Counted from the stretch's first letter, positions 3,483 to 49,335 are shown. The stretch: 64,000 nucleotides of DNA from Patescibacteria group bacterium (GCA_022710775.1 JAKLGH010000004.1:9277-73276); one strand, 5' to 3'. Program-made: numbers and translations. The notes: generated from the sequence alone by a model not told the origin.

Positions 3483-4373
3483 ATGAAAGATGATTTAAAG
3501 CCAAAAAAGCGGCGCAGCTTTAAAAAGATCATTGCCGTAACCGTAGTGGCGAATATGCTGGTTTGGCTGGCTTTTTTCGAATTGTCGGCACAAGGGCTGT
3601 TGCGCGTGGAATTTTTCGACGTGGGCCAAGGGGATGCCGCGCTGATAAAAACTCCTTCAGGCGCCGACATACTGATTGATGGCGGCCCTGGCCTCGCGGT
3701 TCTGGAGGGGCTGGGAAGGTCTTTGCCGTTTTGGGACCGCGATATCGATCTCCTGATCCTGACCCATGCCGACCATGACCATTTGGCCGGATTGCTGGAA
3801 GTTTTAAAGCAGTATAAGGTAAAAAGCGTTCTTTGGAACGGCGCGATAAAAGATACTGCCGAATTTGAGGAGTGGGCCAGGCTTATTTTTGAGGAAAAAA
3901 GCGATATTTACATCGCCCGCGCCGGTATGCGGATAACTTTTGACCGGGAACCCGGCCATTTTATTGAAGTGCTTTATCCGGAGCAGGATTTATCGGGGGT
4001 TGCGGTAAAAGACGCGAACAACGGGTCGGTGGTAGTAAAACTGGTTTATGGAGAAAGCGAGTTTCTTTTTACGGGGGACATATACGGTTTTATCGAAGAT
4101 AGTCTGGCGAACGGAGATACCGATTTGGATGCCGACGTTTTAAAAGTTGCGCATCACGGCAGTAAAAATTCCGCGTCCGAACTATTTTTGAGAAAGGTTG
4201 ATCCCGATATTGCGGTTATTTCCGTCGGACGCAACAGCTATGGCCATCCCAGCGAGGAAATCTTGGAAATGATGGAAAAACATGGTATAAAAATATTCAG
4301 GACGGATATGGCCGGAGATATAACATTTACAACCGATGGTCAAAATTTAAGTCTAAAAACCGAAAATCAATAA
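3483..4373 (+). CDS. ComEC/Rec2-related metallo-beta-lactamase domain protein, membrane anchored
   Basis: HADHDH and HHGS motifs and one N-terminal TM. The in-frame ATG at 3483 is preferred over the TTG-extended track ORF starting at 3384. Confidence 0.65.
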   Translation: MKDDLKPKKRRSFKKIIAVTVVANMLVWLAFFELSAQGLLRVEFFDVGQGDAALIKTPSGADILIDGGPGLAVLEGLGRSLPFWDRDIDLLILTHADHDHLAGLLEVLKQYKVKSVLWNGAIKDTAEFEEWARLIFEEKSDIYIARAGMRITFDREPGHFIEVLYPEQDLSGVAVKDANNGSVVVKLVYGESEFLFTGDIYGFIEDSLANGDTDLDADVLKVAHHGSKNSASELFLRKVDPDIAVISVGRNSYGHPSEEILEMMEKHGIKIFRTDMAGDITFTTDGQNLSLKTENQ

Positions 4374-4381
4374 ATCAAAAT

Positions 4382-5449
4382 ATGAAATTCCCAATTTTTA
4401 AAACCAAAATGGAAGGCAAGGACAAGACATTCAATTTAACCGATCCGGTGGAGCGCAACGACTATTTCCATTACAAGGTTGACGAAGAGATCGATAAGCT
4501 CAAAGATTATGTCAGGGAAAATTCTTTCATCGTTTATCTTTTAGGCAAAAAGAATTCCGGAAAGGGGACTTATTCCAAAATGTTTGCCGAGATAATTAAT
4601 CCCGAAAGGATTGACCATTTTTCCGTGGGCGATATGATCCGAGAGGTGAGCAAGGATATTCAGGACGGGACTAAGAAACAGGAAATCGAAGATTATTTGA
4701 AAAAAGAATACCGCGGCTGGGTACCGGCCGAGGATTTGATCAAAGCCATCGAGAACCGCGACACCAAAACGCTTCTTCCCACGGAACTGATATTGGCCTT
4801 GGTTAAGAGGGAAATCGCCAAACGGCCCAAGAAAACCATTTTCATCGACGGTTTTCCCCGGGAAATGGACCAGGTAAGCTATTCACTGTTTTTCCGGGAT
4901 TTGATCGGATTCCGCAACGACCAGGACGTGCTGGCATTCATTGATGTGCCGACCAACGTGATCGAAGAGCGAATCAAGTGGCGCCGGATCTGCCCGGTTT
5001 GCAACACTTCGCGCAGTATTAAGCTTTTGCCGACCGCCAAGATCGGCTACGACGAAGGCTCAAAAGAATTTTATTTGATTTGCGACAATCCAAAATGCCC
5101 GGGCCACAATACCCAAAAACTCGGTCCCAAAGAAGGCGACGAGCTCGGCATCGCTCCCTTGAAAGACCGCTTGGAGCTTGACCAAAAACTGATGGAAAAG
5201 GCCATGACGTTGTACGGCATTCCAAAAGTTTATTTGCGCAACGCCATTCCGGCTGAATTGGCCAAGGACTATGTCGACGACTACGAGCTGACCCCGGAAT
5301 TCGAATTTGCCTGGGACGGCAAAGAGGTGAAAACGACGCAAAAGCCCTGGACAGTCAAAGACGACGAGGGCGTCACTTCCCACAGCCTCATGGCCGCGCC
5401 GGTGGTTGTTTCTTTGATCAAACAGCTTGCCAGCGTGCTTGGATTATAA
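4382..5449 (+). CDS. Divergent adenylate-kinase-family protein with N- and C-terminal extensions
   Basis: 355 aa. P-loop GKKNSGKGT, DGFPR, and a zinc-lid-like CPVC...CDNPKCPG. Confidence 0.55.
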   Translation: MKFPIFKTKMEGKDKTFNLTDPVERNDYFHYKVDEEIDKLKDYVRENSFIVYLLGKKNSGKGTYSKMFAEIINPERIDHFSVGDMIREVSKDIQDGTKKQEIEDYLKKEYRGWVPAEDLIKAIENRDTKTLLPTELILALVKREIAKRPKKTIFIDGFPREMDQVSYSLFFRDLIGFRNDQDVLAFIDVPTNVIEERIKWRRICPVCNTSRSIKLLPTAKIGYDEGSKEFYLICDNPKCPGHNTQKLGPKEGDELGIAPLKDRLELDQKLMEKAMTLYGIPKVYLRNAIPAELAKDYVDDYELTPEFEFAWDGKEVKTTQKPWTVKDDEGVTSHSLMAAPVVVSLIKQLASVLGL

Positions 5450-5482
5450 ATTTTTCAGCGACATCGATTGTTTTTTTGGAAG

Positions 5483-5505
5483 CGCCCGGGTAACCGGGCG
5501 TTTTT
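5483..5505 (+). terminator. Rho-independent terminator after the Adk-like gene
   Basis: cgcccgg-gtaa-ccgggcg stem-loop followed by TTTTT. Confidence 0.7.
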
Positions 5506-5506
5506 G

Positions 5507-5534
5507 TTGACAGCCGACAGCTTTTAAATATAAT
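5507..5534 (+). promoter_or_regulatory. Sigma70-like promoter
   Basis: TTGACA (5507-5512), 16-nt spacer, TATAAT (5529-5534). Confidence 0.55.
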
Positions 5535-5885
5535 GACAGCGGGTGATATTATGTAGGAAGGCCTTCTAGCTTATTGGTCGCAAGAGCAGGTGCAATTCAT
5601 AAGGTGTATTCCAATACTGCTTTGGCTGATGCACGGCTTATTGTTTGGTATTATGGGGATCGCGCTTGGCAGCAAGAAATTGGTAAAAGACGGATTGGCA
5701 ATTTTAGTTACGGTCATGGCCGCGTTTTTATTCCGGCTAATCTGCCCCAAAAAGATTTTTTGACCGCGCTTTGCGTGATTATCGGATATGTTTTTATTGT
5801 CCACGGATATGTTAAGATCAGGCGCGCTAAAGCCGTTCTCGGATAGGGAAAAACGTGCTATATTAGCGCAAAAGGAGGCAGATCT

Positions 5886-35938: not shown

Positions 35939-36442
35939 ATGTACAAGCGGATAAAAGGTAAAAAATTCAGCAGAAAAACCGATCAAAGGAGGGCTTTTCT
36001 AAGGAATTTGGCGGTTAATCTGATAATGGAAGAAAGGATAACCACCACGAAAACCCGGGCAAAAGCGGCCTCTTCTTTGGTTGAAAAAATGATTACCAAA
36101 GCAAAGAAAGGCAATCTTGCGGCAATAAAACGGCTTTCCAGCATGCTTCCCCAACTGGCCGTAAAAAAGCTGATGGCTAATGTTGCGCCGCGTTTTATGC
36201 AAAGAAACGGCGGATATACCCGGATTATGAAATTGGGCCAACGCTATAAAGACGGATCAGAAATGGCCATAGTTGAGTTTATCGACCATGACGAGGTGCA
36301 TGCCGCCGAACTGGCGGAAAAAGCGAAAAAAATTACCGAAAAGAAAAAGGGTGTAAAGAAAGAAAAGGCTGCCAAGAAAGAGACGAAGAAAGCGGCAAAA
36401 ACAGCTAAGCCCGAAATTGTGGCGGAAAGCGATGGAAAATAG
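35939..36442 (+). CDS. rplQ: 50S ribosomal protein L17 (K-rich C-terminal tail)
   Basis: 167 aa. RAFLRNLAVNLI...RITTT motif. Confidence 0.9.
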   Translation: MYKRIKGKKFSRKTDQRRAFLRNLAVNLIMEERITTTKTRAKAASSLVEKMITKAKKGNLAAIKRLSSMLPQLAVKKLMANVAPRFMQRNGGYTRIMKLGQRYKDGSEMAIVEFIDHDEVHAAELAEKAKKITEKKKGVKKEKAAKKETKKAAKTAKPEIVAESDGK

Positions 36443-36478: not shown

Positions 36479-36829
36479 ATGAATCGAGAAAAATACACAA
36501 TCGACGCATCGGGAAAAGTCCTGGGTAGGCTGGCTGCCGAGATTGCTTTGCTGTTACGCGGAAAAAACAAACAAGGCTTCGTTCCTTATAAAGATGAAGG
36601 CGATTTTGTAACCGTGAAAAACGCGAAGGACGTCAAGGTTTCCGGCAGGAAAATGGACCAAAAAATTTATTACCATTATACCGGTTATACCGGAGGCTTG
36701 CGCAGAACGCCGATTAAGCGGATGCTGCAGAACAAGCCGACGGAAATTTTAAAAAAGGCCGTTTATAGAATGCTTCCAGATAATAAGTTGCGCGACAAAA
36801 TGATCAAACGGCTTAAGTTTGAAGATTAA
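36479..36829 (+). CDS. rplM: 50S ribosomal protein L13
   Basis: 116 aa: GKVLGRLAAEIALLLRGK. Confidence 0.9.
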   Translation: MNREKYTIDASGKVLGRLAAEIALLLRGKNKQGFVPYKDEGDFVTVKNAKDVKVSGRKMDQKIYYHYTGYTGGLRRTPIKRMLQNKPTEILKKAVYRMLPDNKLRDKMIKRLKFED

Positions 36830-36833
36830 TTAC

Positions 36834-37445
36834 ATGACTACTAAAGAAATTAAACCAAAGACCGCGCCGAAGGTGCGCAAGGCGCCTGCCAAGGTTAAAA
36901 AGGAAGCGGAAATAAAAGGACAAGAGCAAAAAGCAATGGCCGAAACGGAAGAAACAAAAAAAACAGCGATGGGGGAGAAGGTTTCTGCCGTCGAGCCTGT
37001 TTCTGCGGAAGAAACCGGCGACTTGGCTGATGAGAACGGAAAAACCCCTAAATCAAACCGCTACTATGAAGCTGTCGGCCGCCGCAAGACCGCAACCGCG
37101 CGCGTGAGGCTTTTTACCAGGGGCGACAAATCTTTTGTTATCAACGACAAACCGCTGGAAAAATATTTTCCGGGTGCGATTTTCAAATCCGTCATTGAAG
37201 CTCCTTTGGTGAAAATGAATATTGTAGATCGCTTCAAGATAACCGCTGTTGTCAAAGGGGGAGGGATCAATGCTCAGGCGGAAGCGATCAGGCACGGAAT
37301 TGCCCGGGCCTTGGTGATGTTTAATCTTGATTTTAAGAAACGCTTGAAAAAATCCGGATACCTGACGCGAGATTCAAGGATGAAGGAAAGGAAAAAGCCC
37401 GGTTTGCGCAAAGCCCGCCGAGCGCCCCAATGGGCCAAACGTTAG
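36834..37445 (+). CDS. rpsI: 30S ribosomal protein S9 (K/E/A-rich N-terminal extension of about 75 aa)
   Basis: C-terminal GGGINAQAEAIRHGIARAL...KARRAPQWAKR. In-frame ATG at 36834. Confidence 0.9.
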   Translation: MTTKEIKPKTAPKVRKAPAKVKKEAEIKGQEQKAMAETEETKKTAMGEKVSAVEPVSAEETGDLADENGKTPKSNRYYEAVGRRKTATARVRLFTRGDKSFVINDKPLEKYFPGAIFKSVIEAPLVKMNIVDRFKITAVVKGGGINAQAEAIRHGIARALVMFNLDFKKRLKKSGYLTRDSRMKERKKPGLRKARRAPQWAKR

Positions 37446-37575
37446 CGAACGTTTGGTACTGAGCCCAGCAGGGCGAATGTGCCGAAAACAGCGAACGTTT
37501 GGTACTGAGCCCAGCAGGGCGAATGTGCCGAAAACAGCGAACGTCTGGTACTGAGCCCAGCAGGGCGAATGTGCC
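37444..37575 (+). repeat. Tandem direct repeat, 3 x 46 nt (third copy truncated or diverged)
   Basis: Units start at 37444, 37490 and 37536: agcgaacgtttggtactgagcccagcagggcgaatgtgccgaaaac. Each can fold as GGUAC-UGA-GCCC-AGCA-GGGC-GAAU-GUGCC. Confidence 0.85.
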
Positions 37576-37595
37576 AAGTGCTAATTTTAAATTAA

Positions 37596-37627
37596 AACCA
37601 CTCCGGAATACGGGGTGGTTTTGTTTT
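37596..37627 (+). terminator. Rho-independent terminator of the rplM-rpsI unit
   Basis: ccactccg-gaata-cggggtgg followed by TTTTGTTTT. Confidence 0.7.
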
Positions 37628-37920
37628 AATTTTTTACCGAAATTTTCTTTCGGTATCGCTGTTATCAATAAAAAATTAGTCGCATGCGCAACTAATCTTC
37701 GCTTGTCCAGCAATTGTTATCATCGGGGAAAGCGCCAAGCGCAATAGCCACAATGATCGCTAATATCAATATCGCTATTATTCCATAAGCGAACCACATC
37801 GATCCCTGATGAATGGCTCCTCCCAAAGCTAAAAGAACTGAAATAAATTCACCTCCCGCAATTTGGAGCGTACCACAATAGACTTAAAAATCGATTGTTA
37901 AAGTATTGCCGTTTTGCATT

Positions 37921-37946
37921 AAAAAAAACGGATGTTTTTCATCCGT
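37921..37946 (-). terminator. Rho-independent terminator (minus strand)
   Basis: Minus strand reads acggatg-aaaaa-catccgt followed by T8, 14 nt after the stop of the 128-aa ORF. Confidence 0.7.
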
Positions 37947-37959
37947 ATCGGGCTAGCGG

Positions 37960-38346
37960 TTATTTGTTCCAAAGATAGGTTCTGGCTTTAATGAGCAAAT
38001 TCGATATCAGTGCCGCGATCATTTCCCGCTTGTTTACGCGGAACGCTTTGTTCGCATCTTTGATCCAGCCGCCGCGGTTTAAGCGGACGTGGGTTTGCCA
38101 GTCGCTGTCGTATCTTGAGCGATAGTATTCCACGATTTTCCCGTCAAAAAAACTCTTGACAAACACCAATGATCCGGCAAAAACAATGTAAAGGATAGAC
38201 CCGCCTAAAAGCGCGTTAGGATTTTTAACCATCAGGAAAATTCCAAAAAGGACCATTCCGGCGAACAAAATATTCATTAGCTTTTTTGTCATTCTGTCGC
38301 ACGATTCAACGTAAAGCCGCAACAGGTTTAGCGCGCGATCGTCCAT
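37960..38346 (-). CDS. Hypothetical membrane protein (128 aa, 2 TM)
   Basis: GGAGG precedes the ATG. Has its own terminator. No family recognised. Confidence 0.55.
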   Translation of the reverse strand: MDDRALNLLRLYVESCDRMTKKLMNILFAGMVLFGIFLMVKNPNALLGGSILYIVFAGSLVFVKSFFDGKIVEYYRSRYDSDWQTHVRLNRGGWIKDANKAFRVNKREMIAALISNLLIKARTYLWNK

Positions 38347-38357
38347 GCTGTTCCTCC

Positions 38358-38399
38358 TTATAAACGAACTAAGCCTAGTTATAAACGAACTAAGCCCAG
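38358..38399 (-). repeat. Tandem 21-nt duplication abutting the Shine-Dalgarno of the 128-aa ORF
   Basis: ttataaacgaactaagcc(t/c)ag x2 on the plus strand. On the coding strand: ..ggcttagttcgtttataa x2, then ggaggaacagcATG. Confidence 0.8.
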
Positions 38400-38479
38400 T
38401 TTATTGAAAAGCGCTGAAAAATCAAGCAAGCGGGCGAGACTGGCCGGTTTTCACGAAAAAATGATGCCGTTTAAAAGCA

Positions 38480-38929
38480 TCATTTGGTCCATACCAGTAC
38501 CCTGTAGTCATTTAATCTGGTTCCGGTTTGGGGCTGGAAGGCTTCGCTTAGGCAGAGCGGCTGGATGCCGAGTTCTGTTTCTCGCCTGATCCAGGGGTCG
38601 GTTGGATGGAGTAAAAGCCTAGGTTGCCAGCCTTCTTTTTTTAGCCGGCGGTAACTGTTTTCGCCCTTAGTCCAAACCAAGGCTCGGCGGTCGTCAAGCC
38701 TTATCCCGGTTTTAGGGTCGAAGGCCTTTCCTACAAATACTTTCTGGCCGCCTAACTTTCTAATTTGTTCGATCCGGGGGTCGTTTTCATTGGCCAAGAA
38801 TTCCGGGGTCCAGCCTAGCCTCTGAAGCCGTTGGAATTCGCTCTCGCCGATCTTTGGCGCTGTTCTTCTCGCGTTGCCCTGGGCTTTTGATCCCAGGTTA
38901 TGCAATATTCTCCCTACCATTATTACCAC
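38480..38929 (-). CDS. Hypothetical soluble protein (149 aa) built from two homologous repeats of about 55 aa
   Basis: Repeat 1 is LGWTPEFL..DPRI...FDPKTGIRLDDRRALVWTK. Repeat 2 is EGWQPRLL..DPWI...FQPQTGTRLNDYRVLVWTK. Has its own promoter and terminator. Confidence 0.6.
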   Translation of the reverse strand: MVIMVGRILHNLGSKAQGNARRTAPKIGESEFQRLQRLGWTPEFLANENDPRIEQIRKLGGQKVFVGKAFDPKTGIRLDDRRALVWTKGENSYRRLKKEGWQPRLLLHPTDPWIRRETELGIQPLCLSEAFQPQTGTRLNDYRVLVWTK

Positions 38930-38948
38930 TCACCAAATTTATTATAAT

Positions 38949-38976
38949 TATTATAACAGAAATATAATTTATGTCA
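38949..38976 (-). promoter_or_regulatory. Sigma70-like promoter of the 149-aa ORF
   Basis: Minus strand: TTGACA, 16 nt, TATAAT. Confidence 0.55.
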
Positions 38977-39023
38977 AGGCGCAAAAGGACAAAAAAAGCG
39001 ATGGGTCATCGCTTGTATTAAAA

Positions 39024-39227
39024 TTACACTTGCCCGTCTTTTGAAATTGTTTGGTTTGCGGCGGGCAGTTTTAACTCGCGGAAAGCGATTATAACACACC
39101 CTCCCAGCTGTATGTAAAGCGCCCAAAAACCGAAACTGTCAGGCAGAAAACCCAGACCATAGATGATGAATTCCGCCAGGAGAATTCCTGAAACAATGCC
39201 GATGAACAGTGCCGAACGGTCGTTCAT
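39024..39227 (-). CDS. Small membrane protein (67 aa, 2 TM)
   Basis: Start overlaps the stop of the upstream 65-aa ORF (ATGA-type overlap). A hairpin plus T-run lies downstream. Confidence 0.45.
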   Translation of the reverse strand: MNDRSALFIGIVSGILLAEFIIYGLGFLPDSFGFWALYIQLGGCVIIAFRELKLPAANQTISKDGQV

Positions 39228-39421
39228 ATCAGCCTCCCGGCCGGGATTACTGCTGTTTTTCGTTCACAATGGAACACCAATGCCGGAAAAGCCGCCAGCT
39301 GGAAAATTAGCATAAAAATGACGGAACCGTCGTTTAGAGGGATTCCAGCTACGAGCAATAAAATCGTCTCTGCGATAACTCCGTAAAGCGTACCTAATAT
39401 TACCCATATGATAAAGTTCAT
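39224..39421 (-). CDS. Small membrane protein (65 aa, 2 TM)
   Basis: Translationally coupled to the 67-aa ORF. TTGACT-17-TAAATA lies upstream on the minus strand. Confidence 0.45.
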   Translation of the reverse strand: MNFIIWVILGTLYGVIAETILLLVAGIPLNDGSVIFMLIFQLAAFPALVFHCERKTAVIPAGRLI

Positions 39422-39568
39422 CGCAATACCTCAAACTTAATGCTTAATATTATTTAACATCAATTATTTAAAAAGTCAATTTTGGCTTGGTGATATATTT
39501 TTGGCGGAATTTTTTTTGGATGTTTAGCCGGTCCAGGAAAAAAGAAAATAAAAACCCTTTTTAAAGGG

Positions 39569-39856
39569 TTATCCGAATTCATCGTTGCGGCCTTTTTGTT
39601 TTTTAAGTTGTTTGTTTGTCCAAGGCTCCAGTACGAACTTAGTAAAAATCGCAACGCATATCGCAAGGCTGTATATCCAGCCGTAATCAATGAAAAGAGC
39701 CAGGAAAGCTATCATCAAGGCTAGCAGGCAAACGAACACATTTTTCAAGAACCTTTTCTTGGCGGCCGCTTCCCAGGCTAGTTTGTTTTCTTGAATGTAA
39801 GCTTCGATCTTTTCGTCCAATTTCGTCACCGTCCCGCGCTTAGGAAAAAATATCAT
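39569..39856 (-). CDS. Small membrane protein (95 aa, 2 TM)
   Basis: Amphipathic N-terminus followed by two TM segments. Terminator hairpin accctt/aagggt lies at its stop. Confidence 0.45.
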   Translation of the reverse strand: MIFFPKRGTVTKLDEKIEAYIQENKLAWEAAAKKRFLKNVFVCLLALMIAFLALFIDYGWIYSLAICVAIFTKFVLEPWTNKQLKKQKGRNDEFG

Positions 39857-39975
39857 TTTTTTCGGTTTTACGCAATATTTAAATAACTGTTTGTACGGTA
39901 AAGGCCGTTGCTTGCAATTGCCCCGCGAAAGATTAAAATGGTAATACTCCCAATCGCTTTAATGACGAAAATAAA

Positions 39976-40653
39976 ATGTTGTCCGAACTGATCGATAAAT
40001 TTTATCTTGATAAGGAAAAAGACCATGAGCGCCACCGTTTTTACGTTACCGACGCGGGAAAATGCCCCCGCTCCGTTTTTTACAAATTCAAAAACGCGCC
40101 GGGAAAAGACATGACTCCGGAAATTTTGAGGCTTCTGGACCACGGCGATTACATTCAGATGCATATGATGAGCAATTTGTTCTCCTTGGGCATTGTCCGG
40201 GCCTCCGAGGTGCGCATACCGCCCCAGGAGATCGTTTCCGGCCGGGCCGACGCGATCGTGACCCTGGATAACGAATTGTATGTCATTGACGTGAAGGGAA
40301 TCAACAGCAATACTTTTAAAACCCTGGTTGAGGCCAAGCCCGATAACGTCAACCAGATCCAGCTCTACCTCCATTTTTTTAAAATTCCGCGAGGCATTCT
40401 TTTATACGTTAATAAGAACACGCTGGAGTTAAAAGAGTTCTTGGTTGATTATGATAAAGACCGGTGCGAAAATTTGATGGCGGAATTGGCTGCCCTTAAG
40501 GCTAAGATCGGCCAAAACATCATTCCGGCCAGGATCGGCGGATATCCGGGCGATTATCAGTGCCGGTATTGCCAGTTTAAAGAAGTTTGCCAGATATCGG
40601 GCCAGGGAGAGATTGACTGGGGCGCGTTCCGGAAGAAAATCGAAACCGCTTGA
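39976..40653 (+). CDS. Cas4-like PD-(D/E)XK nuclease with Fe-S cysteine cluster (stand-alone)
   Basis: 225 aa. N-terminal Cys (DAGKCPR), D...IDVKG (DxK), QIQLY (QxxxY), and C-terminal CRYCQFKEVC. Confidence 0.65.
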   Translation: MLSELIDKFYLDKEKDHERHRFYVTDAGKCPRSVFYKFKNAPGKDMTPEILRLLDHGDYIQMHMMSNLFSLGIVRASEVRIPPQEIVSGRADAIVTLDNELYVIDVKGINSNTFKTLVEAKPDNVNQIQLYLHFFKIPRGILLYVNKNTLELKEFLVDYDKDRCENLMAELAALKAKIGQNIIPARIGGYPGDYQCRYCQFKEVCQISGQGEIDWGAFRKKIETA

Positions 40654-40654
40654 A

Positions 40655-40682
40655 CAAAAAAAGGGCTTTTGCCCTTTTTTTT
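40655..40682. terminator. Bidirectional terminator hairpin
   Basis: AAAAAA-aagggc-tttt-gccctt-TTTTTT. Confidence 0.7.
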
Positions 40683-40781
40683 GTTTGAACCCCCGCCGGT
40701 TTCGCGGTAAAATTAAAAAACAACGTAAAACATATTTGAAGCGCCGCGACGCGCTGATAACGATTACGCTTAACAACGATT

Positions 40782-41945
40782 ATGGAAGAACAACAGAAAA
40801 AAAAGACGGTTAAAACATTGACTCTGGCATCTTTTTTAAATGATTTCGGTTCCGACGTTATTTATCCCGTCTGGCCGATGTTTGTTACCACGTTCCTCGG
40901 CGCCAATATGGCGGTGCTCGGTTTTATTGACGGTCTCGGCGACGCGATCGTTTCGATTTCCCAGGCGATATCGGGATATTATTCCGACCGCATAAAAAAG
41001 CGCAAGATTTTCGTATCGACAGGCTATTTTTTCGGCGGACTTTCCCGGATCGGGTACGCCGTGGCCAGCACATGGCAGCTATTGATACCTTTCAAGATCC
41101 TGGATCGGGCAGGGAAGATGCGAGGCGCGCCGCGGGACGCCATGGTCGCGGATGCTTCAACCGCTTTAAACCGCGGAAAGAATTTTGGGATATTGTCGAC
41201 CTTTGACAATCTGGGGGCGGTTTGCGGGATTATTTTTTGCATAGCTTTGTTTCCGCTGCTGGGCTACCGCAACTTGTTTCTGTTGGCGGCCATACCGTCG
41301 CTGATCGGCGCGCTCATGATCACGCTAGCCATCAAAGAACAAAAAAAAGCCGAAGGCAGGATCTTCAAAGGATTCCGTTTTGCCAACCTAGACCGGAATT
41401 TCAAGCTTTTTTTGCTTTTATCCGGGATTTTCGCTTTGGGTTCTTTCAGTTATTCTTTTCTGCTGGTATTCGCGAATAAATACGGCTATTCCGAAACTTT
41501 TCTGCCGGTGCTGTATTTAATATTCACTTTCGCATCTTCTTTGGCTTCTTTGCCGTTCGGACGGTATTCCGACCGGCTGAAGAGCCGGAAAAAACTGCTT
41601 TTTTTATCCTATTTTTTCTGGTTCCTCGTTTGCGGGATACTGATTTACAGCCAGAGCCAGGCGGCAATTATCGCAGCTTTCGTGCTATACGGCATCCATA
41701 AAGGGGGGATAAACGTGGTGCAGAAAGCCTTCGTTTCCGATTTGTGCGCGACGGAAGTGCGGGCGTCCAGCTTGGGGGCTTTCCAGCTGGTTGTCGGGTT
41801 CTGCGCGCTGCCCGCTTCGCTGGTCGCCGGTTTGTTGTGGGATGCCGTCAATCCCATGGTGCCGTTTTTCCTTTCCCTGGCTTTGACCGCGGTTTCGGGA
41901 ATTTTACTGATGTTCGTAAAAGAAGATTTTTCCGCCGCCGCTTAA
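40782..41945 (+). CDS. MFS transporter
   Basis: 387 aa, about 12 TM. GYYSDRIKKRK loop resembles MFS motif A. Confidence 0.75.
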   Translation: MEEQQKKKTVKTLTLASFLNDFGSDVIYPVWPMFVTTFLGANMAVLGFIDGLGDAIVSISQAISGYYSDRIKKRKIFVSTGYFFGGLSRIGYAVASTWQLLIPFKILDRAGKMRGAPRDAMVADASTALNRGKNFGILSTFDNLGAVCGIIFCIALFPLLGYRNLFLLAAIPSLIGALMITLAIKEQKKAEGRIFKGFRFANLDRNFKLFLLLSGIFALGSFSYSFLLVFANKYGYSETFLPVLYLIFTFASSLASLPFGRYSDRLKSRKKLLFLSYFFWFLVCGILIYSQSQAAIIAAFVLYGIHKGGINVVQKAFVSDLCATEVRASSLGAFQLVVGFCALPASLVAGLLWDAVNPMVPFFLSLALTAVSGILLMFVKEDFSAAA

Positions 41946-41966
41946 AACTTTCTATCGAAAAAGAAA

Positions 41967-41986
41967 AAGGCCGCGTTAGCGGCCTT
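41967..41986. terminator. Bidirectional terminator between convergent genes
   Basis: aaggccgc-gtta-gcggcctt, flanked by A- and T-runs. Confidence 0.7.
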
Positions 41987-42007
41987 TTGAGATTTTAAGC
42001 TTGTTCG

Positions 42008-42640
42008 CTATCCGGCGTATTTTTTAAAAAGATCTTTAACGGTCATTATCTTTGCTCCTTTAGATTCCAGCTCCGACAAAATCTTTTTCTTGTTTTCTTC
42101 GGTTCCGGTTTTTCCGGGGCCGAAAGCGGGCGCGGTTACGTCTCGCAAAACAATCAAATCGAAATTTTCCTCTAATAGTTGCAGGCAGGCAAGACGCATA
42201 CAGCAGTCAAAACCATTTCCGAAGACAACCCATTTTTTAATTTTCAGTTTTTTAAATAATTTTAACGCGTTTTTATTATATTTGAAAAAATTATAGGCAC
42301 TGCGCTCGGAATTTATCCGCGGACAGCCATATTGTTGTTTTTCAATGTAAAAATAACGGTACTCTTCCAAGTCTTTTGCCCAGGAACAGCCTTTTTCGTT
42401 TATGGGGATGTAAAGAACATAATCCAAGGAATCTTTTTTTAGAAAAGTTCCGGAACAGCAAGTTGAAAATACAAACATCAGCTGGTGTTCGTAGGCGAAA
42501 TCATACAAAAGATTGAGTTTATCCGCTATCGGCTTAACTCTTTCCCGAAGCTCCAAACCAAGGCCGTCTTGGCTTAGTTCGCGGCTGTCAACATCGAAGA
42601 ATCCTATTTCCCCGTTCAGGGGCTGCTTTTTTCTGGCCAT
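42008..42640 (-). CDS. Hypothetical hydrolase, possibly isochorismatase-like (cysteine hydrolase fold)
   Basis: 210 aa. WVVFGNGFDCCMRLACLQLLEENFDLIVLRDVTAP resembles the isochorismatase-family G-x-x-x-D-x-C strand-helix. Lies 11 nt downstream of the ABC ATPase. Confidence 0.3.
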   Translation of the reverse strand: MARKKQPLNGEIGFFDVDSRELSQDGLGLELRERVKPIADKLNLLYDFAYEHQLMFVFSTCCSGTFLKKDSLDYVLYIPINEKGCSWAKDLEEYRYFYIEKQQYGCPRINSERSAYNFFKYNKNALKLFKKLKIKKWVVFGNGFDCCMRLACLQLLEENFDLIVLRDVTAPAFGPGKTGTEENKKKILSELESKGAKIMTVKDLFKKYAG

Positions 42641-42651
42641 GTGTTTTTAAT

Positions 42652-43419
42652 CTATAAAACGGAGGAATCGCAGCTTGCTTTAGGCAAAATATACCTTCCT
42701 TCTCCGTCTTTGATTATTTTAGCTTTAATGCCGTAAACTTCTTCGAGCATTGATTCGGTAACTATATTTTCCGGTTTTCCGGAAGCGTATATTTTGCCGT
42801 TCTTAACCACATGCAGGGCGTTGGCGTATCGGACAGCCAAGTTTAAGTCATGGAGGACGATTAGCGCGCTGGCTTGGTTTTTCCGGGCGTACCGGCTGAT
42901 TTTATCCATGATTTCAAGCTGGTTCTTCAGGTCCAGATTATTGGTCGGTTCGTCTATCAGCAGGTACTTAGGGTTTTTCATCAATGCCTGGGCGATAAAG
43001 ACTTCCTGAAGCTGTCCTCCGCTTATCTCGTTAATTTTTTTTTGGGCCAGGTAGCGGATATTGAATTCGTCCATAACCTTTTCCACTTGTTCCAGGTTTT
43101 TTCTTCCGATATGCCAGGACAGCTGTTCCATGTTGCCTAAAAGCATTATTTCAAAAACATTTAAAGCGGCATTAACAGATATTTGCTGAGGGAGATAGCT
43201 TAGTTTTTGATATAGATTTTTGTGTTCGTTGATTTCTTTCCCTTCAAAAAAAACACTGTCTTTTGTTTTTAAAACCCCGGCCAGGCATTTTAAAATTGTA
43301 GATTTACCGGAAGCGTTTGGGCCGATAATGATATTTATGCCCTTGCCAAATTCAAAGTCGATATGGTCCAAGACACGTTTTTGTGCGTGATATTCGAATG
43401 TCAGTTGCCGAGCTATCAT
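42652..43419 (-). CDS. ABC transporter ATP-binding protein (FepC/BtuD-like)
   Basis: Walker A GPNASGKST, signature ISGGQLQ, Walker B LLIDEPT. Confidence 0.85.
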   Translation of the reverse strand: MIARQLTFEYHAQKRVLDHIDFEFGKGINIIIGPNASGKSTILKCLAGVLKTKDSVFFEGKEINEHKNLYQKLSYLPQQISVNAALNVFEIMLLGNMEQLSWHIGRKNLEQVEKVMDEFNIRYLAQKKINEISGGQLQEVFIAQALMKNPKYLLIDEPTNNLDLKNQLEIMDKISRYARKNQASALIVLHDLNLAVRYANALHVVKNGKIYASGKPENIVTESMLEEVYGIKAKIIKDGEGRYILPKASCDSSVL

Positions 43420-43425
43420 AGTTTT

Positions 43426-44481
43426 TTACCAGTAGTTTTGTTTTTTCCCGACGACTATGGCTAAAAAGAACGGAATGCCGATCAATGAAGTTATGATGCC
43501 GATAGGGAAGATGACCCCGGGGAGGATAGATTTGCATAATATCGAGGCGCCTGACAAGATAAATGCTCCGCATAGAGCCGATAAGGGCATAAAAAAGCGC
43601 TGGTCTTCTCCCACTATCATTCGCGCAATGTGAGGCGCTACAATACCGATAAAGCCGACGGTTCCCACGAAACAAACCGCCGTAGCCGTTAGAATTGAAA
43701 TATAAACAAGCATAGTAAGACGGAGCTTTTCCACGTTAATACCCAGGCTTTTTGCTTTTTCGTCCCCAAGCCTCATTGCGGTCAATTTCCAGGCATTGGA
43801 CGCGATCAGCGGGATAATGACGGCAAGTACGGCGGCCAAAATGCCGACTTTAGGCCAGGTTGCTTGCATTAAGCTGCCAAACAGCCAGAAAACTATGGCT
43901 TGAAGCTCATCGGAAGTTGAGAAAAATTGGATCAGAGACAGCAGGGAATTAAACAAAAAAGCAAGGGCTACTCCCGCCAAGATGATGGTTTCGGTGGATC
44001 CTCTTTTCATTTTTCCGATGCCATAGATCAAGAGCATTGAAAGGAACGCAGTTAGAAAAGCGCATATTGGAACGATATAGCTTTCAATTCCCGGCAAAAA
44101 ACGATATCCGAAAACGATGGCTAGCGAAGCTCCAAATCCGGCTGCCGCGGATACGCCAAGCGTAAACGGGCTAGCAAGAGGATTGTTAAGGATTGTTTGC
44201 ATTTGCGATCCTGCAATGGCGAGCGCCGCTCCGACAAGCAAAGCCATAATCGCGATAGGCAGGCGGTAAACCCAGACGATCACTTTGCTTACGGCGTTGA
44301 CGCTATCGGGGTAAAATATGGCTTGCAATACTTCTTTGGCGGTAAGGCCGGATGAACCGGTAAAAACATCTATCAGGAAGGCTGTTATTAACAACGAAAC
44401 CAGGCTTGCGATAACCAGTAATTTGCGGCGAACCAGTTTTCCATACAAAACAACGATTTTTGGGTTATTCTTAGATTCCAT
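43426..44481 (-). CDS. FecCD-family ABC permease (iron-chelate/cobalamin type)
   Basis: 351 aa, about 10 TM. Size and hydrophobic pattern match BtuC/FepD. Sits between the binding protein and the ATPase. Confidence 0.8.
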   Translation of the reverse strand: MESKNNPKIVVLYGKLVRRKLLVIASLVSLLITAFLIDVFTGSSGLTAKEVLQAIFYPDSVNAVSKVIVWVYRLPIAIMALLVGAALAIAGSQMQTILNNPLASPFTLGVSAAAGFGASLAIVFGYRFLPGIESYIVPICAFLTAFLSMLLIYGIGKMKRGSTETIILAGVALAFLFNSLLSLIQFFSTSDELQAIVFWLFGSLMQATWPKVGILAAVLAVIIPLIASNAWKLTAMRLGDEKAKSLGINVEKLRLTMLVYISILTATAVCFVGTVGFIGIVAPHIARMIVGEDQRFFMPLSALCGAFILSGASILCKSILPGVIFPIGIITSLIGIPFFLAIVVGKKQNYW

Positions 44482-44487
44482 TTGCCT

Positions 44488-45642
44488 TTACCGGTTTAAT
44501 TGCGCAGACCATATTCCGCTGTATTCCACCGGCATGAACCGGCGGTAAAACTCCTTTAGATTTTCAACAGGATCGACATCCGCGAATTCCTCGGGATAGA
44601 ACCACTTAGCCATCTGCTGGAGGGCGAAAAAATTAAAAAAATGGCCAACGCAACCGCTGTGGATCGCGTAAAACCGGCCGTTCTTTACCGCTTTGAGGTC
44701 TTGCCAGCCGGGGCGGCTGGTGTAGCTTTGCAATAATTTTTGCGTTTCTTCTTCGGAAGCGTAAAAACCTGTTCGCATCGAGCCCTCGGTTGCCGGCCAG
44801 TTTCCGCCGGTAATAATGATGATGTCGGGGTCTTTTTTGAAAAGGAATTCCGGATCGATATAGATGCTTTCACCCAGTTTGTAATCGATGATATTTTTTC
44901 CTCCAGCCAGAAGTATTTGCGCGCCCCAATTGTGGAGTTTGTGTACGCCGTCCTCGCCGTAAGTTTGTCCGTATTTTTGCGCTCCGCTGTTTCCTGATTC
45001 GATGTAGACTACCGGTTTTTCCTTGTCGATTATAGCAAGCCTGGATGTTACAATTTCCACTTGCGCGTCTATATAATCATTAATCTCTTTGGTCCTTTCT
45101 TCTTTATTGAACAACTGGCCCAAGACCGAAATTCCTTTTTGCGGGTTTTCCAGGGCGTCGTAGGCCGCGTTGAGAAAAACCATGGGTGCGTTCGCGGCTT
45201 TCAATTTATCAACGATTTTCAACTGCCGCCTAATCATATAGCTGTCCATCAGGACCAAGTCGGGTTTGTATGAGAGTACATCTTCGGGGTTCGTCGCGTC
45301 TTTGGCAATATCGCCTAAAACCGGTTTTTCTTTGAGTGCCGGGAATTTTTCCGTAAATTTTTCATAAGCGTCAAGATCGGAATTTTTAAGATCCGGCCCC
45401 CAGGCCGCGATTTTTCCGGGCGCGTCTTCGCCCAATATCAAAGATAATTCGTAAATATCGGAACTTTTCATCAATACGGTTCTTTGGCAGGGAGTTATGA
45501 AAACGGTTTTGCGGCCTTCCAGGTCAATGATCGATTTTCCGCTATCCGCTATTTGAACCGGTTTTTCGGAAATTTGCGTAAAATATATTGCTCCGCCAAT
45601 GATCAAAAAAATAGAAACTAATGCTACGATTTTTTTGGACAT
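44488..45642 (-). CDS. ABC substrate-binding protein, cluster A (Peripla_BP_2-like), paralog 1
   Basis: N-terminal anchor. PCQRTVLMKSSDIYELSLILG, KPDLVLMD, PGWQDLKAVKNGRFYAI. Confidence 0.75.
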   Translation of the reverse strand: MSKKIVALVSIFLIIGGAIYFTQISEKPVQIADSGKSIIDLEGRKTVFITPCQRTVLMKSSDIYELSLILGEDAPGKIAAWGPDLKNSDLDAYEKFTEKFPALKEKPVLGDIAKDATNPEDVLSYKPDLVLMDSYMIRRQLKIVDKLKAANAPMVFLNAAYDALENPQKGISVLGQLFNKEERTKEINDYIDAQVEIVTSRLAIIDKEKPVVYIESGNSGAQKYGQTYGEDGVHKLHNWGAQILLAGGKNIIDYKLGESIYIDPEFLFKKDPDIIIITGGNWPATEGSMRTGFYASEEETQKLLQSYTSRPGWQDLKAVKNGRFYAIHSGCVGHFFNFFALQQMAKWFYPEEFADVDPVENLKEFYRRFMPVEYSGIWSAQLNR

Positions 45643-45652
45643 ATTATGCGTA

Positions 45653-46813
45653 TTATTTAGAGATTTCGGTGAACCAAGTTCCGCTGTATTCGATGGGCAT
45701 AAAGCGGTTATGGAATTCCTTCAAATTAGCCTCCGGGTTGATATCCGCGAATTCCTCGGGATAGAACCACTTAGCCATCTGCTGGAGGGCGGCGAAAGCG
45801 AAAATATGCATTGTCATGCCGTGATGGATCGCGTAAACCCGGCCGTTCTTTACCGCTTCGAGGTCTTGCCAGCCGGGGCGGTTGGTAAAGCTTTTCAACA
45901 GCTGTTGGGCTTCATCTCCGGACGTGTAATATCCCATTCTCATCGAGTCTTCTACTGTCGGCCAATTGGCCCCGGTGATAATGATCACATCGGGGTTTGA
46001 TTTCAGCAAGTATTCAGGATCAATGGAAAATAATTCACCAGGCAGATCTCCGACGATATTTTTTCCTCCGGCATACTGGATCATTGCTCCCCAACTGGTA
46101 TATTGTCCGTTGACGTCTACTCCCCAAGTGCTGCCATATTGCTTGGCCCCCAAATCTCCGGTTTCCATATATACAACCGGCGCGGTTTTTTCGATCTTGG
46201 CCAGGCGGGATGTCACGATATTTATCTGTCCGTCGACAAAATCGGCAATTTCTTCGGCCCGTTCTTCCTTATTGAACAGCTGGCCCAGGACTGTGATTCC
46301 TTTTTGCTGGTTGGTCAGAATGTCATTGGTTTGGTCCATGAACGCCATTGGCATACCGGCTTCCTTAAGCCGGTCGACGCTTTTGTATTGTCTACGCGTC
46401 ATGAAATTGTCCATTACGATCAGGTCGGGGTTGTAGGACAGAACGTTTTCAGGGTCAAGGGAATCGTTATAGATGCTGCCGACCAAAGGTTTATCCGCCA
46501 AAGAAGGGAATTTTTCGGAATATTTTTTATAAGCGTCGGTATCGGAAGTTTTAATATCTTCTCCCCAGGCCACGATCTTGTCGGCGGTTTGTCCGCCAAG
46601 GACTGCTGAAAGCTCATAGATATCCCGGCTGCGGGGCAGAATAACCTTTTCGCACGGCGTCTTGAAGGTTTTTGTTTCTCCGGAAAGGTCGGTTATCTGT
46701 TTGTTCTGACTTGAAATTTCCGGTGTTGGTTCCGGAGTTTTCGAAGTTGATAAATAAAATAGTCCGGCTGCCGCGGCAGCCAAAACCAAAACAAACGGTA
46801 TTTTTCTGTTCAT
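45653..46813 (-). CDS. ABC substrate-binding protein, cluster A, paralog 2
   Basis: Same architecture as paralog 1. The C-terminal part is nearly identical to it even at nucleotide level. Confidence 0.75.
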   Translation of the reverse strand: MNRKIPFVLVLAAAAAGLFYLSTSKTPEPTPEISSQNKQITDLSGETKTFKTPCEKVILPRSRDIYELSAVLGGQTADKIVAWGEDIKTSDTDAYKKYSEKFPSLADKPLVGSIYNDSLDPENVLSYNPDLIVMDNFMTRRQYKSVDRLKEAGMPMAFMDQTNDILTNQQKGITVLGQLFNKEERAEEIADFVDGQINIVTSRLAKIEKTAPVVYMETGDLGAKQYGSTWGVDVNGQYTSWGAMIQYAGGKNIVGDLPGELFSIDPEYLLKSNPDVIIITGANWPTVEDSMRMGYYTSGDEAQQLLKSFTNRPGWQDLEAVKNGRVYAIHHGMTMHIFAFAALQQMAKWFYPEEFADINPEANLKEFHNRFMPIEYSGTWFTEISK

Positions 46814-46960
46814 TGATATCTTTTAAATATTTCTTTATTGTATCTTAATTATATCAATAATTCAAAAAACATTTTTTTATCGCCGAAATTGAAACCATGG
46901 TTTCATTCGCGATTTGTTTTGAATATTGTTTGAAAATGGGTTCTTGGGTGTTTATTGTTC

Positions 46961-46997
46961 TTAGCTCAAAGATTAGGCGGCAATATCGGCAGCGGGG
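46961..46997 (+). repeat. Promoter-upstream repeat element, copy c (core CGGCAGCGGG at 46987-46996)
   Basis: ttagctcaaagattaggcggcaatatcggcagcgggg. Followed by TGTATTATAAT at 47024-47034. Confidence 0.55.
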
Positions 46998-47080
46998 CAG
47001 CCTGGCAGATATTTTTCAAATATTGTATTATAATTCAAAGAGATCAATATCTTGAATTTAATTTAATCCAATCAAAAAAA

Positions 47081-47884
47081 ATGGAAACAGAGGATAAACT
47101 TATCGTGTTCGGGATCTCATTAGTTCTTTTAATCGTTGCCGTTCTGATCCTTAATCCCTTCGTTATCGTTAACGCCGGAGAAAAGGGGGTAGTGATGAAT
47201 TGGGGGGCGGTTTCGGACAAAGTGGTGGGGGAAGGTCTTCATGTTTTGATACCGATACAGCAATCGGTTAAAAAGATCAACGTAAAAACGGTTAAATACG
47301 AAACCGAAGTGGCCGCTTATTCCAACGACGCCCAAGTGGTAACCGGCAAGCTGGCTTTAAACTATCATTTGCAGGGCGATAAGGCTAACCGTATTTACCA
47401 GGAGATCGGGGATAACGGAATGGTCCAGGACACGATTGTTAATCCGGCAATTCAGGAGGCTTTTAAATCCGCGGCGGCGCGGTTTTCAGCCGCCGACCTG
47501 CTGGGAAAAAGAACATTGATGGCCGAAGATATGAAAGCCGGACTTTCCGACAGGCTTAAGGATAATTTTATTACCGTTGACGCGTTATCGCTGGTTAATT
47601 TCTCTTTCAGCTTTGACTACGAGCACGCCGTGGAAGCCAAACTGATCGCCCAGCAGAACGCATTGAAAGCGGAGAACGATTTGCAGAAAGCGAAAGCGGA
47701 GGCGGCCGCGCAGGTTGCCAAAGCGGAAGCCGAAGCTTCTTCAATCAAAATGCAGGCCGAGGCCATTAAGGAACAAGGCGGCAAAGATTATATCCAGCTG
47801 AAGGCCATCGATAAGTGGGATGGTTCACTGCCTTCGCAAATGGTTCCCGGCGGTTCGGTTCCGTTCCTGGATCTGTCTAATTAA
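47081..47884 (+). CDS. SPFH/band-7 (prohibitin-like) membrane protein
   Basis: In-frame ATG at 47081 gives 267 aa. N-terminal TM, SPFH core, and a coiled-coil AKAEAAAQVAKAEAEA. Confidence 0.75.
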   Translation: METEDKLIVFGISLVLLIVAVLILNPFVIVNAGEKGVVMNWGAVSDKVVGEGLHVLIPIQQSVKKINVKTVKYETEVAAYSNDAQVVTGKLALNYHLQGDKANRIYQEIGDNGMVQDTIVNPAIQEAFKSAAARFSAADLLGKRTLMAEDMKAGLSDRLKDNFITVDALSLVNFSFSFDYEHAVEAKLIAQQNALKAENDLQKAKAEAAAQVAKAEAEASSIKMQAEAIKEQGGKDYIQLKAIDKWDGSLPSQMVPGGSVPFLDLSN

Positions 47885-47997: not shown

Positions 47998-49335
47998 CTA
48001 TTTAATTTCGGCTTTGTACAAATCGGTTCCGTCCAGGACGTAGAAGTTATTTTTGCTATTTTCCCAAAAAAGGTTCTGGCTTGATCCGGTCCGGCCGTCC
48101 CCGGAGAATTTAACGAGATCGATCACATTCAGCTTGTCGCGGTCATCCATTTCGGCGATCTTTACGTTCCCGCCGCTTGAGAAGGCCAGGTAATCGGAGC
48201 TGATCCAGGCGGAATCCTGGATTTTTTCGGAGAGGCGGACAACGAACAATTTGTCGCCGGCAGCTTTTTTAGGTTCGTCGGTTTTTTCCTTAAGGTAGTA
48301 AACCCAAAGTTCGGAGTTTGAAAAATAAGCGATTTTCGTACCATCGGGAGCGATTTCCAAGTCAGACGCCAGGCCATCGAAGATCTTTTGGAATTCCTGG
48401 GATTTGCCGTCGAAAACATATAGATTCTGGCCATCGGAAAGAAAAATAAATCCGTTAATATTCCAGATCTTATGGGCCGCCTTTTCGTCAATCGGCAGAG
48501 GCTTTTCGTTGATCTTTTCGATCTGGCCGGCGACGGTGTCTTTTTTAAATAAAAAGCCGGATTTGTCTAAATAAAAAAGGGTATTGTCCGATAATTTATC
48601 GGCCACCGATCCTTCGGGTGCCAAAACAGAGTTGTCTTCCCGGATTAATTGGGGAGAAAGGCGGTCAACGCTTAAAGAATAATACCTTTGTTCATCATGA
48701 AGGCCGGCTGTGATGGTGATCTTCTTGTTATCTTGCGACCATTCCAGGCTTTCTAGTTTGGCTCCATCGGCGGAAATATCGCTTTCTTCCGCCAGCTGGC
48801 TTTTTAAACCGTTCTCGACGTTAAAAAGCTTGATTGACCAGCCGTCGGTTGCTTCGCTGTACAGGATGATCTTGGTTCCGTCGGGACTGGGCCAGAATCT
48901 GTTAACGTCCTCGGCCGCGACGGCGAAAGACGGGTTTTGAGGGAAGAGCGTCACATATTTTATTTCCGTTACTTGCTTTTCCCGGATTTCCAGCTGTTTT
49001 TTCCAAGAATGGTAACCTTCTTTTCTGATCTCGATATCGTATTTTTTGGGCATTAGGTTCTCGATCAGGCTGGAACCGAAGAAAATATCCGTTTTTTTGG
49101 ACAGACCGCCGTTAACGTAAATATCAGCTTGTTTGGGAGTCGCTTTGACGAAAAGCCCCCCGGTTTTAACGAGGATTTTGCCGTTCTGCGGCGGGATGCT
49201 TAAACGATAACCTTGGGAATAAAGGATGATCGTAGGCGCCGCCATTAAAAAAAGGCAGAAAAAGGTCAAAAACAAAATTTTCCGGCTTGAAGCGGTCATT
49301 GGATATAGCGTGATTGTTGAAACTGACAAATCCAT
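47998..49335 (-). CDS. PEGA-domain plus TolB-like beta-propeller protein, membrane anchored
   Basis: 445 aa. N-terminal TM, a PEGA-like ADIYVNG...YDIEIRKEGYHSW, then SPDGTKI/APDGTKIAY repeats. Confidence 0.6.
   Translation of the reverse strand: MDLSVSTITLYPMTASSRKILFLTFFCLFLMAAPTIILYSQGYRLSIPPQNGKILVKTGGLFVKATPKQADIYVNGGLSKKTDIFFGSSLIENLMPKKYDIEIRKEGYHSWKKQLEIREKQVTEIKYVTLFPQNPSFAVAAEDVNRFWPSPDGTKIILYSEATDGWSIKLFNVENGLKSQLAEESDISADGAKLESLEWSQDNKKITITAGLHDEQRYYSLSVDRLSPQLIREDNSVLAPEGSVADKLSDNTLFYLDKSGFLFKKDTVAGQIEKINEKPLPIDEKAAHKIWNINGFIFLSDGQNLYVFDGKSQEFQKIFDGLASDLEIAPDGTKIAYFSNSELWVYYLKEKTDEPKKAAGDKLFVVRLSEKIQDSAWISSDYLAFSSGGNVKIAEMDDRDKLNVIDLVKFSGDGRTGSSQNLFWENSKNNFYVLDGTDLYKAEIK

Follow-up and report, generated by a model that had tools for sequence, protein, structure and literature searches.

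We analyzed a 64,000-nucleotide stretch of a metagenome-assembled genome (MAG) from Paceibacteria, a lineage of Patescibacteria, or candidate phyla radiation (CPR) bacteria. In this stretch, hereafter the window, five small minus-strand genes, A to E, lie between the ribosomal-protein operon rpoA-rplQ-rplM-rpsI and a plus-strand gene for a Cas4-like nuclease. Listing of the open reading frames (ORFs) bore out the five minus-strand ORFs of 128, 149, 67+65 (coupled) and 95 aa described in a first-pass annotation of the sequence, which had grouped them with the nuclease as accessory, defence or phage-derived cargo. Comparison with related genomes separates the two. The evidence gives good support for a core nuclease, for a recurrent insertion slot beside it, and for a hypervariable block that is inherited vertically and comprises four transcription units. 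Contig DAOTDI010000004.1 of GCA_035453565.1 (Candidatus Paceibacterota) encodes a nuclease identical to that of the window, as do several metagenome contigs.

The Cas4-like nuclease and the slot upstream of it

The nuclease gene (39976-40653, plus strand) encodes a protein of 225 aa that we assign to the Cas4-like 4Fe-4S PD-(D/E)XK nucleases from its family scores and conserved motifs. It matches PDDEXK_1 at 2e-7 with 31.5 bits, above the cut-off of 22, and this superfamily model was the only one passed. PADLOC Cas4 was matched at 8e-11 and phrog_1706, a family of phage Cas4-type exonucleases, at 8e-26; phrog_1990 is of the same type. These matches confirm the divergent Cas4-family nuclease gene of the first-pass annotation. 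Under the curated Cas4 cut-offs the protein falls short, with 40.2 versus 65 bits for TIGR00372 and 14.4 versus 22.7 bits for PF01930. The RecB-type motifs GRADA, (V/I)D.K (DxK) and Q.QLY (QxxxY) are kept in an alignment of 20 homologues, as is a four-cysteine Fe-S signature (C30 in AGKCPR; CX2CX5C in C.YC..KE.C), and a 4Fe-4S cluster is predicted from these conserved ligands. The ratio of nonsynonymous to synonymous divergence (dN/dS, omega) is 0.05-0.10 in comparisons with strains and the sister species. The 64-kb window contains no CRISPR array, nor cas1 or cas2.

To place the gene in its context, we scanned one genome per GTDB species for the nuclease, which yielded 20 Patescibacteria loci with 46-83% identity, and placed the window proteins on these loci by tblastn. 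At all 19 loci outside the immediate clade for which upstream sequence was present (L007-L025), rpoA, rplQ, rplM, rpsI and the nuclease gene follow one another on one strand, and these loci are deeply diverged, with rpoA 57-66% identical. The gap between rpsI and the nuclease gene measures 5-224 bp in 14/19 loci. Because gaps are often of 5-15 bp, the smallest seen, the nuclease is probably co-transcribed with rpsI. In the distant relatives a convergent PEGA-domain gene usually comes next. The ancestral order is rpoA-rplQ-rplM-rpsI-Cas4-like nuclease, followed by the convergent PEGA-domain gene. The Cas4-like gene is a syntenic core gene that stands outside the block and anchors the slot on its right-hand side. 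Its proposed membership of the accessory set does not hold, since it directly follows rpsI on the same strand in 19/19 distant genomes.

Orphan 'cas4' calls in CPR MAGs have been reported (e.g., bioRxiv 10.1101/2024.03.08.584096), and literature searches turned up no more than passing mentions of orphan cas4 in Patescibacteria. With a Cas4-family Fe-S nuclease attached to rpoA-rplQ-rplM-rpsI across Paceibacteria, such calls may represent this rpsI-linked gene and not CRISPR remnants.

The junction between rpsI and the nuclease gene carries unrelated cargo in 3/19 genomes. In L018 (JBBTVX010000014.1) it holds a complete type II restriction-modification (RM) pair at 3865-5861, consisting of an N6/N4 methylase (N6_N4_Mtase, 2e-14) and a TdeIII-family endonuclease (RE_TdeIII, 5e-57). 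The other two genomes carry a PDDEXK_3 gene (L007, 1e-29) and a gene for a 275-aa membrane protein (L013). Conserved core flanks, alternative unrelated cargo, and differences in content or allele between close strains were all found, and the rpsI/Cas4-like junction is thus a recurrent insertion slot. The junction just upstream of the Cas4-like gene can be used to search these genomes for accessory cargo.

Gene products, inheritance and strain-level variation of the block

Four of the five block genes encode small membrane proteins. Gene A (37960-38346, minus strand; 128 aa) specifies a hairpin of two transmembrane (TM) helices with a basic C-terminal tail of ~60 aa, in which the motif YRSRYDSDW..RLNRGGWIK..NKAF is conserved. 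Genes C (39024-39227, minus strand; 67 aa) and D (39224-39421, minus strand; 65 aa) each encode a two-TM hairpin; C has the conserved core DSFGFWALYIQL.GC.II, and D appears to be translationally coupled to C through a 4-nt ATGA overlap. The product of gene E (39569-39856, minus strand; 95 aa) begins with an amphipathic helix, and a two-TM hairpin follows. The two hydrophobic helices of A, C, D and E are in each case separated by a very short loop, and the positive-inside rule predicts cytoplasmic tails and short outer loops. The description of four two-TM mini-proteins with no recognizable family stands: none of A-E, and likewise a doubtful small ORF described below, had a significant match in Pfam, NCBIfam, PHROG or PADLOC, and in PADLOC none at E ≤ 1. 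C and D show no detectable paralogy to each other, and the window contains no paralogues of the block proteins elsewhere.

Gene B (38480-38920, minus strand) encodes a basic soluble protein with a pI of 10.4 and no hydrophobic segments. It measures 146 aa from ATG 38920, where its homologues begin, or 149 aa from GTG 38929, and its N-terminal tail carries the motif MxGRIxHNLGxKAQGNxRR. An AlphaFold2 model built from an 8-sequence alignment reached a predicted local distance difference test score (pLDDT) of 82.7. In the model, a disordered, basic N-terminal stretch (18 residues) precedes two ~60-aa tandem repeats, each predicted to fold as helix-strand-helix-strand-strand. Because a single repeat folded alone gave a pLDDT of only 64, the two halves of B probably pack on each other; one-domain homologues may dimerize.

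Searches with B returned leads rather than relatives of known fold. Foldseek comparison of the model with PDB and BFVD gave no match at E < 0.3 or template-modelling score > 0.25, and the B profile against PDB sequences gave a weak match to the Cpl-7 CW_7 repeat (E = 0.012, 5 bits per repeat), which we regard as a lead only. Profile-profile comparison of the A tail with B (hhalign) found a common RL.R.GW motif at a probability of 4.6%, for which we claim no homology. Each B domain ends in TG-x-R-x-(N/D)D-x-R-V-L-V-W-T-K-G, a sequence (TGxRxNDxRVLVWTKG) that can be set beside CGIRxNDSRVLCWG of giant RCC1-repeat proteins. This motif accounts for the multi-stretch matches to such proteins in the exhaustive profile search with B. 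We considered these proteins as a family for B and rejected them, as the matches are at motif level, with 2-14 bits per single stretch.

Strains L026 and L028 share the order E, C, B, A, with D variable, as does the sister species (L006/L032); L033 has D-C-B-A. Genes resembling B and A occupy the same place in L030, where an A-like gene of 75 aa adjoins the B-like gene, on the P0009 contig, and in L031, whose B-like gene lies beside the Cas4-like gene though rpsI is no longer adjacent. An exhaustive search with the B profile identified one-domain relatives of 105-134 aa, whose contigs place them between rpsI and the nuclease gene. Among 5.8 billion clustered proteins (5.8e9), close relatives numbered eight for B, four for A and one for E, and a metagenome scan with B re-found only the sister species. 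B, usually with an adjoining A, is the persistent old core of the block.

In two distant relatives, L031 (5596-5877, minus strand) and the source of the P0009 contig, small multi-zinc-ribbon proteins of ~90 aa lie beside one-domain B homologues. This suggests that they are further alternative partners in the slot.

The coding potential expected for these genes was confirmed by dN/dS, with omega for A-E of ~0.1-0.35 against relatives. In the comparison with the sister species, A has an omega of 0.32, B of 0.12, C of 0.28 and E of 0.27; genes flanking the block lie at 0.03-0.07. Block genes compared with L033 and L035 gave 0.14-0.34, and the D homologues of these two genomes gave 0.16-0.34. These values indicate that A-E are real genes under purifying selection. 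The first-pass annotation had set its accessory reading against a conserved order of the same gene set across the lineage, and such an order is found in part. All sampled strains and the sister species have the same set in the same order, and deeper relatives have it in part; the block is therefore vertically inherited within a small clade and is not a recent mobile island.

Between strains, the block diverges far more than its surroundings. Flanking proteins of the window are 97-100% identical in amino acid sequence to those of L026 and L028, with a synonymous divergence (dS) of 0-0.2. B is 84% and 63% identical to its counterparts in L026 and L028, with dS of 0.56 and 1.12, respectively, and dS between the L026 and L028 genes is 1.98. 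C is 66-70% identical among strains (dS 0.5-0.7) and A 80-84%. For B and C, dS thus lies 5- to 10-fold above the flanks; omega of the block genes between strains remains at 0.1-0.5. B is the block member most widely conserved and also the most strain-variable. Gene content varies as well: D is intact in the window, a 141-bp deletion leaves 18 codons of it in L026 and L028, L006 lacks it, and the 5' half of E is deleted in L028.

A 100-bp identity profile revealed mosaic tracts of low identity with breakpoints within genes. Since synonymous divergence is raised while purifying selection persists, the pattern suggests that recombination has replaced gene segments with divergent alleles, and it does not look like simple decay. 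Evolution of this kind resembles turnover under balancing or frequency-dependent selection.

We also looked for signs of mobility and for phage or defence relatives. The region 37.4-40.7 kb has no ORF or Pfam match for an integrase, recombinase or transposase, no tRNA lies near the block (the nearest are at 6.5 kb and 61.8 kb), and no repeat pair borders or flanks it, in agreement with the first-pass annotation, which had noted no integrase, tRNA target or direct-repeat borders. The GC content of the block (0.437) is not distinct from that of the window (0.456±0.016), and its tetranucleotide distance is mildly atypical (z = 2.85). Scans for A, B and the nuclease in IMG/VR, and for A and B in GenBank phages, retrieved no relatives; these scans did not cover C, D and E. 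The block is accessory in the evolutionary sense, being lineage-restricted and strain-variable. That part of the earlier accessory, defence or phage reading survives, together with the other cargo that the slot holds elsewhere; the phage or defence homology and the mobility that it implied were not found.

Transcription signals, repeats and neighbouring genes

Transcription signals were examined in intergenic alignments of the window, two other strains, the sister species and one further relative. The promoter of B (38977-38950, minus strand), TTGACA-16-(TG)TATAAT, agrees with the consensus at 12/12 positions and has a TG extension; TTGACA-16-TGTTATAAT is kept in five sequences across species (TTGACA, TGTTAT(A/T)AT). 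The D-C promoter, TTGACT-16-TTAAAT (39452-39479, minus strand), forms an invariant block in four sequences with the -10 variants TTAAAT/TAAAAT, and in the sister species, which lacks D, it stands directly upstream of C. For A, a phylogenetic footprint at 38398-38425 (minus strand) marks TTGATT-16-TAAACT, which reads TTGATT-16-TA(A/T)(A/G)CT across relatives and has a -35 element invariant in five sequences. No convincing promoter was identified for E.

Predicted terminator hairpins, all on the minus strand and placed right at the stop codons, follow A (37928-37946; conserved in L026, L028 and L006), B (38456-38483; ATGATGC...GCATCAT + T6, overlapping the B stop codon and invariant in five sequences), C (38996-39014; stem conserved and loop variable across five sequences) and E (39553-39570; conserved in four sequences). 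The density of promoter-like and terminator-like sites is not above that of shuffled sequence (8 versus 6.3±2.6 and 10 versus 7.1±3.0, respectively), and the support for the signals comes not from their number but from where they stand with respect to the genes and from how well they are conserved between species. The idea that most of these genes have their own promoter and terminator thus holds for the promoters of B, D-C and A and for the terminators after A, B, C and E, but neither for E, as regards a promoter, nor for an unusual density of sites. Four transcription units, E, D-C, B and A, are well supported as predictions from these alignments.

The tandem repeats at the left edge, which had been taken as a hallmark of accessory or phage-derived DNA, are repeats of untranslated regions (UTRs) and not island borders. 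A 46-bp unit repeated 2.9 times (37444-37575, within an element spanning 37444-37581, plus strand) starts at the rpsI stop codon and lies in the rpsI 3' UTR, the only place in the window where it occurs. The unit can fold as an imperfect hairpin, and its copy number varies, with one copy in L026 and ~2 in L028, which adds a different ~45-bp tandem repeat; in the NCBI assembly L001 the array caused a run of N. It is followed by the terminator of the rpoA-rplQ-rplM-rpsI operon (37593-37623, plus strand), a 13-bp stem with a T run that is conserved in L026, L028 and L006. A second repeat, of 21 bp x 2.1 (38358-38401, minus strand), lies in the 5' UTR of A between the -10 element and the Shine-Dalgarno sequence. 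It is double in the window and L028 and single in L026, L006 and L033, and is a recent duplication. We had considered both repeats as island borders and rejected them, the first as a variable rpsI 3'-UTR repeat and the second as a duplication in the A 5' UTR. An Rfam scan of 36.8-41.0 kb at E ≤ 1 returned nothing.

A further ORF of about 50 aa with two TM segments had been proposed near the left edge. The reading frame (37692-37847, minus strand) measures 44 aa from a TTG or ~50 aa from an ATT after GGGAGGTG and encodes one long hydrophobic segment. As described, it follows GGGAGGTG, a strong Shine-Dalgarno sequence, yet has no canonical start at proper spacing; the TTG is poorly placed. It sits on a 285-bp indel (~37640-37925) that is present in the window and L028 and not in L026 or L006. 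Against L028, its translation is 86% identical with omega 1.7. With an ATT start, this omega and a patchy distribution, the small ORF is weakly supported and unproven as a gene.

Downstream of the nuclease gene the window carries a second lineage-specific insertion (40782-47884), which separates the Cas4-like gene from the PEGA-domain gene (47998-49335); in more distant relatives the PEGA gene lies directly 3' of the nuclease gene. The insertion encodes a major facilitator superfamily (MFS) transporter, an isochorismatase-like protein of 210 aa, an ATP-binding cassette (ABC) importer and a Band7 protein. The importer comprises an ATPase, a FecCD permease and a tandem pair of Peripla_BP_2 binding proteins, which are paralogues with 55% identity. 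A check suggested earlier, whether rpsI directly precedes the MFS gene in related genomes, gave a negative answer: there it is the Cas4-like gene that comes after rpsI, and the MFS gene is part of this second insertion.

Three further observations concern the flanks. The intergenic region between the Cas4-like and MFS genes (40654-40781) is strongly diverged in L026, with 47-60% identity over ~200 bp between flanking genes at 92-99%. Ribosomal protein S9 (rpsI, 36819-37445) has an N-terminal extension of ~75 aa rich in Lys, Glu and Ala and a total length of 203-208 aa; its length differs among relatives (222 aa in L006) and gene callers are discordant (140 aa in the NCBI record). L17 (rplQ, 35939-36442) bears a C-terminal tail of ~50 aa rich in Lys, Ala and Glu.

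Interpretation and comparison with known systems

The best overall explanation, in which we place roughly even confidence, is that the slot carries a fast-evolving block most likely engaged in membrane conflict or partner interaction. We read the locus in this way because of the mode of evolution of the block, the RM system in the same slot elsewhere, and the membrane-hairpin nature of its products. At the cytoplasmic membrane, the block would serve in biological conflict or in interaction with a partner, for example by conferring immunity to membrane-targeting toxins or phage or by excluding them. In this scheme B would work with the tail of A as a partner or regulator in the cytoplasm, possibly one that binds nucleic acid.

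Several points weigh against this explanation. The block proteins have no homology to defence, toxin, immunity or holin families in Pfam, NCBIfam, PHROGs or PADLOC, and the proposed function draws only on evolutionary mode, context and protein type. In CPR genomes, small hydrophobic orphan genes commonly turn over fast, and conflict need not be the cause. The consensus promoter, high pI and ribosomal-operon neighbour of B also fit a housekeeping nucleic-acid-binding protein. The strain comparison covers three strains and ~10-14 kb of shared sequence, from which B and C cannot be demonstrated as genome-wide outliers, and dS values above 1 are saturated. The synteny at 19/19 loci is conditional in turn, as the genomes were retrieved through the Cas4-like gene itself.

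The main rival, which we consider possible though clearly less probable, holds that these are ordinary clade-specific genes under low constraint, encoding small membrane proteins and a basic, possibly nucleoid- or ribosome-associated protein, and that their variability reflects low constraint and ordinary recombination. Vertical inheritance with conserved order and regulatory signals, native GC, the lack of defence or phage homology, and a basic B with a consensus promoter beside a ribosomal operon all agree with it, as does omega, which is low throughout the block (0.1-0.5 between strains). However, weak constraint alone raises dN and not dS, so the 5- to 10-fold excess of dS in B and C over near-identical flanks counts against it. 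Repeated loss or truncation of D and E and the RM system in the same slot of another lineage also count against it.

The other two rivals are less likely. It is improbable that the block and the Cas4-like nuclease together form a new anti-phage or abortive-infection system, with B in the role of sensor or adaptor, the hairpins acting as effectors, and DNA processing by the nuclease as their partner. In its favour, the block is divergent from the nuclease gene across a common 120-bp control region, the B-like gene of L031 still adjoins the Cas4-like gene without an adjacent rpsI, an RM system occupies the slot of L018, and the block varies at strain level. But the nuclease occurs without the block in 19 genomes, joined to the ribosomal operon, and its function is therefore independent of the block; its evolution is that of a core gene (omega 0.05-0.10), PADLOC gave no match for the block proteins, and E, the block gene nearest to the nuclease, is dispensable, being truncated in L028. 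A horizontally acquired accessory, defence or phage-derived island with the nuclease as cargo is largely refuted and very improbable: the small opposite-strand genes with their own promoters and terminators, the tetranucleotide z of 2.85 and the phage Cas4-type exonuclease families among the best nuclease matches are outweighed by the core position of the nuclease, native GC, the absence of integrase, tRNA target and border repeat, the presence of the block in every sampled strain, the sister species and partly deeper relatives, the lack of relatives in IMG/VR (A, B, nuclease) and GenBank phages (A, B), and tandem repeats that are a variable 3'-UTR repeat and a 5'-UTR duplication.

Extending the conflict or partner-interaction reading, E/D-C/B/A could be a module, so far undescribed, that serves conflict or partner specificity in episymbiotic CPR bacteria and in which B and interchangeable hairpins set immunity or compatibility towards strains, phages or hosts, perhaps with the nuclease. 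We regard this extension as speculative and unlikely. The defence repertoire and host-recognition determinants of Patescibacteria are poorly known, and if the conflict reading is true, the block would rank among the very few loci that are candidates for strain specificity or immunity in these bacteria. Otherwise, the block exemplifies the abundant fast-evolving orphan small genes of CPR bacteria.

The constituents of the locus can each be compared with known systems. The nuclease shares its RecB-type motifs and four-cysteine signature with Cas4 (TIGR00372/PF01930) and with phage Cas4-type exonucleases. Unlike Cas4, it scores below the family cut-offs, has no CRISPR array, cas1 or cas2 in the 64-kb window, and is a stand-alone core gene whose partners are rpsI and the PEGA-domain gene.

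The motif of B is close to the strand pair of one subclass of RCC1 blades (PF00415/PF13540), and the repeat period of ~60 aa is alike. Yet B has no Pfam RCC1 match at E ≤ 1, and its model, which is of the alpha/beta type, contains helices and two repeats only and is therefore not a propeller.

By protein type, the hairpins of the block recall the small hairpins of conflict systems, such as bacteriocin or toxin immunity proteins, superinfection-exclusion and abortive-infection proteins, holins and type I toxins. They are alike in length (65-128 aa), in the very short outer loop that joins their two TM helices, in having predicted promoters and terminators of their own, and in rapid, allele-like divergence between strains. 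In contrast to those systems, the block has no sequence or profile similarity to them, and no toxin, antisense RNA or lysis gene is adjacent.

Finally, integration or defence hotspots between core genes are a concept developed on the chromosomes of enterobacteria and vibrios. As in such hotspots, the slot is bounded by core genes, here rpsI and the Cas4-like gene; its cargo differs by lineage (a type II RM pair, a PDDEXK_3 gene, a membrane protein gene or the E/D-C/B/A block); and its alleles and gene content turn over among strains. It differs from them in lacking the hallmarks of mobile elements, in cargo that is vertically inherited in fixed order within a clade and belongs to no known defence family, and in its setting, inside a ribosomal-protein gene cluster of a reduced CPR genome. 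Loci of this kind are known; the present one is a new instance, and orphan families occupy it.

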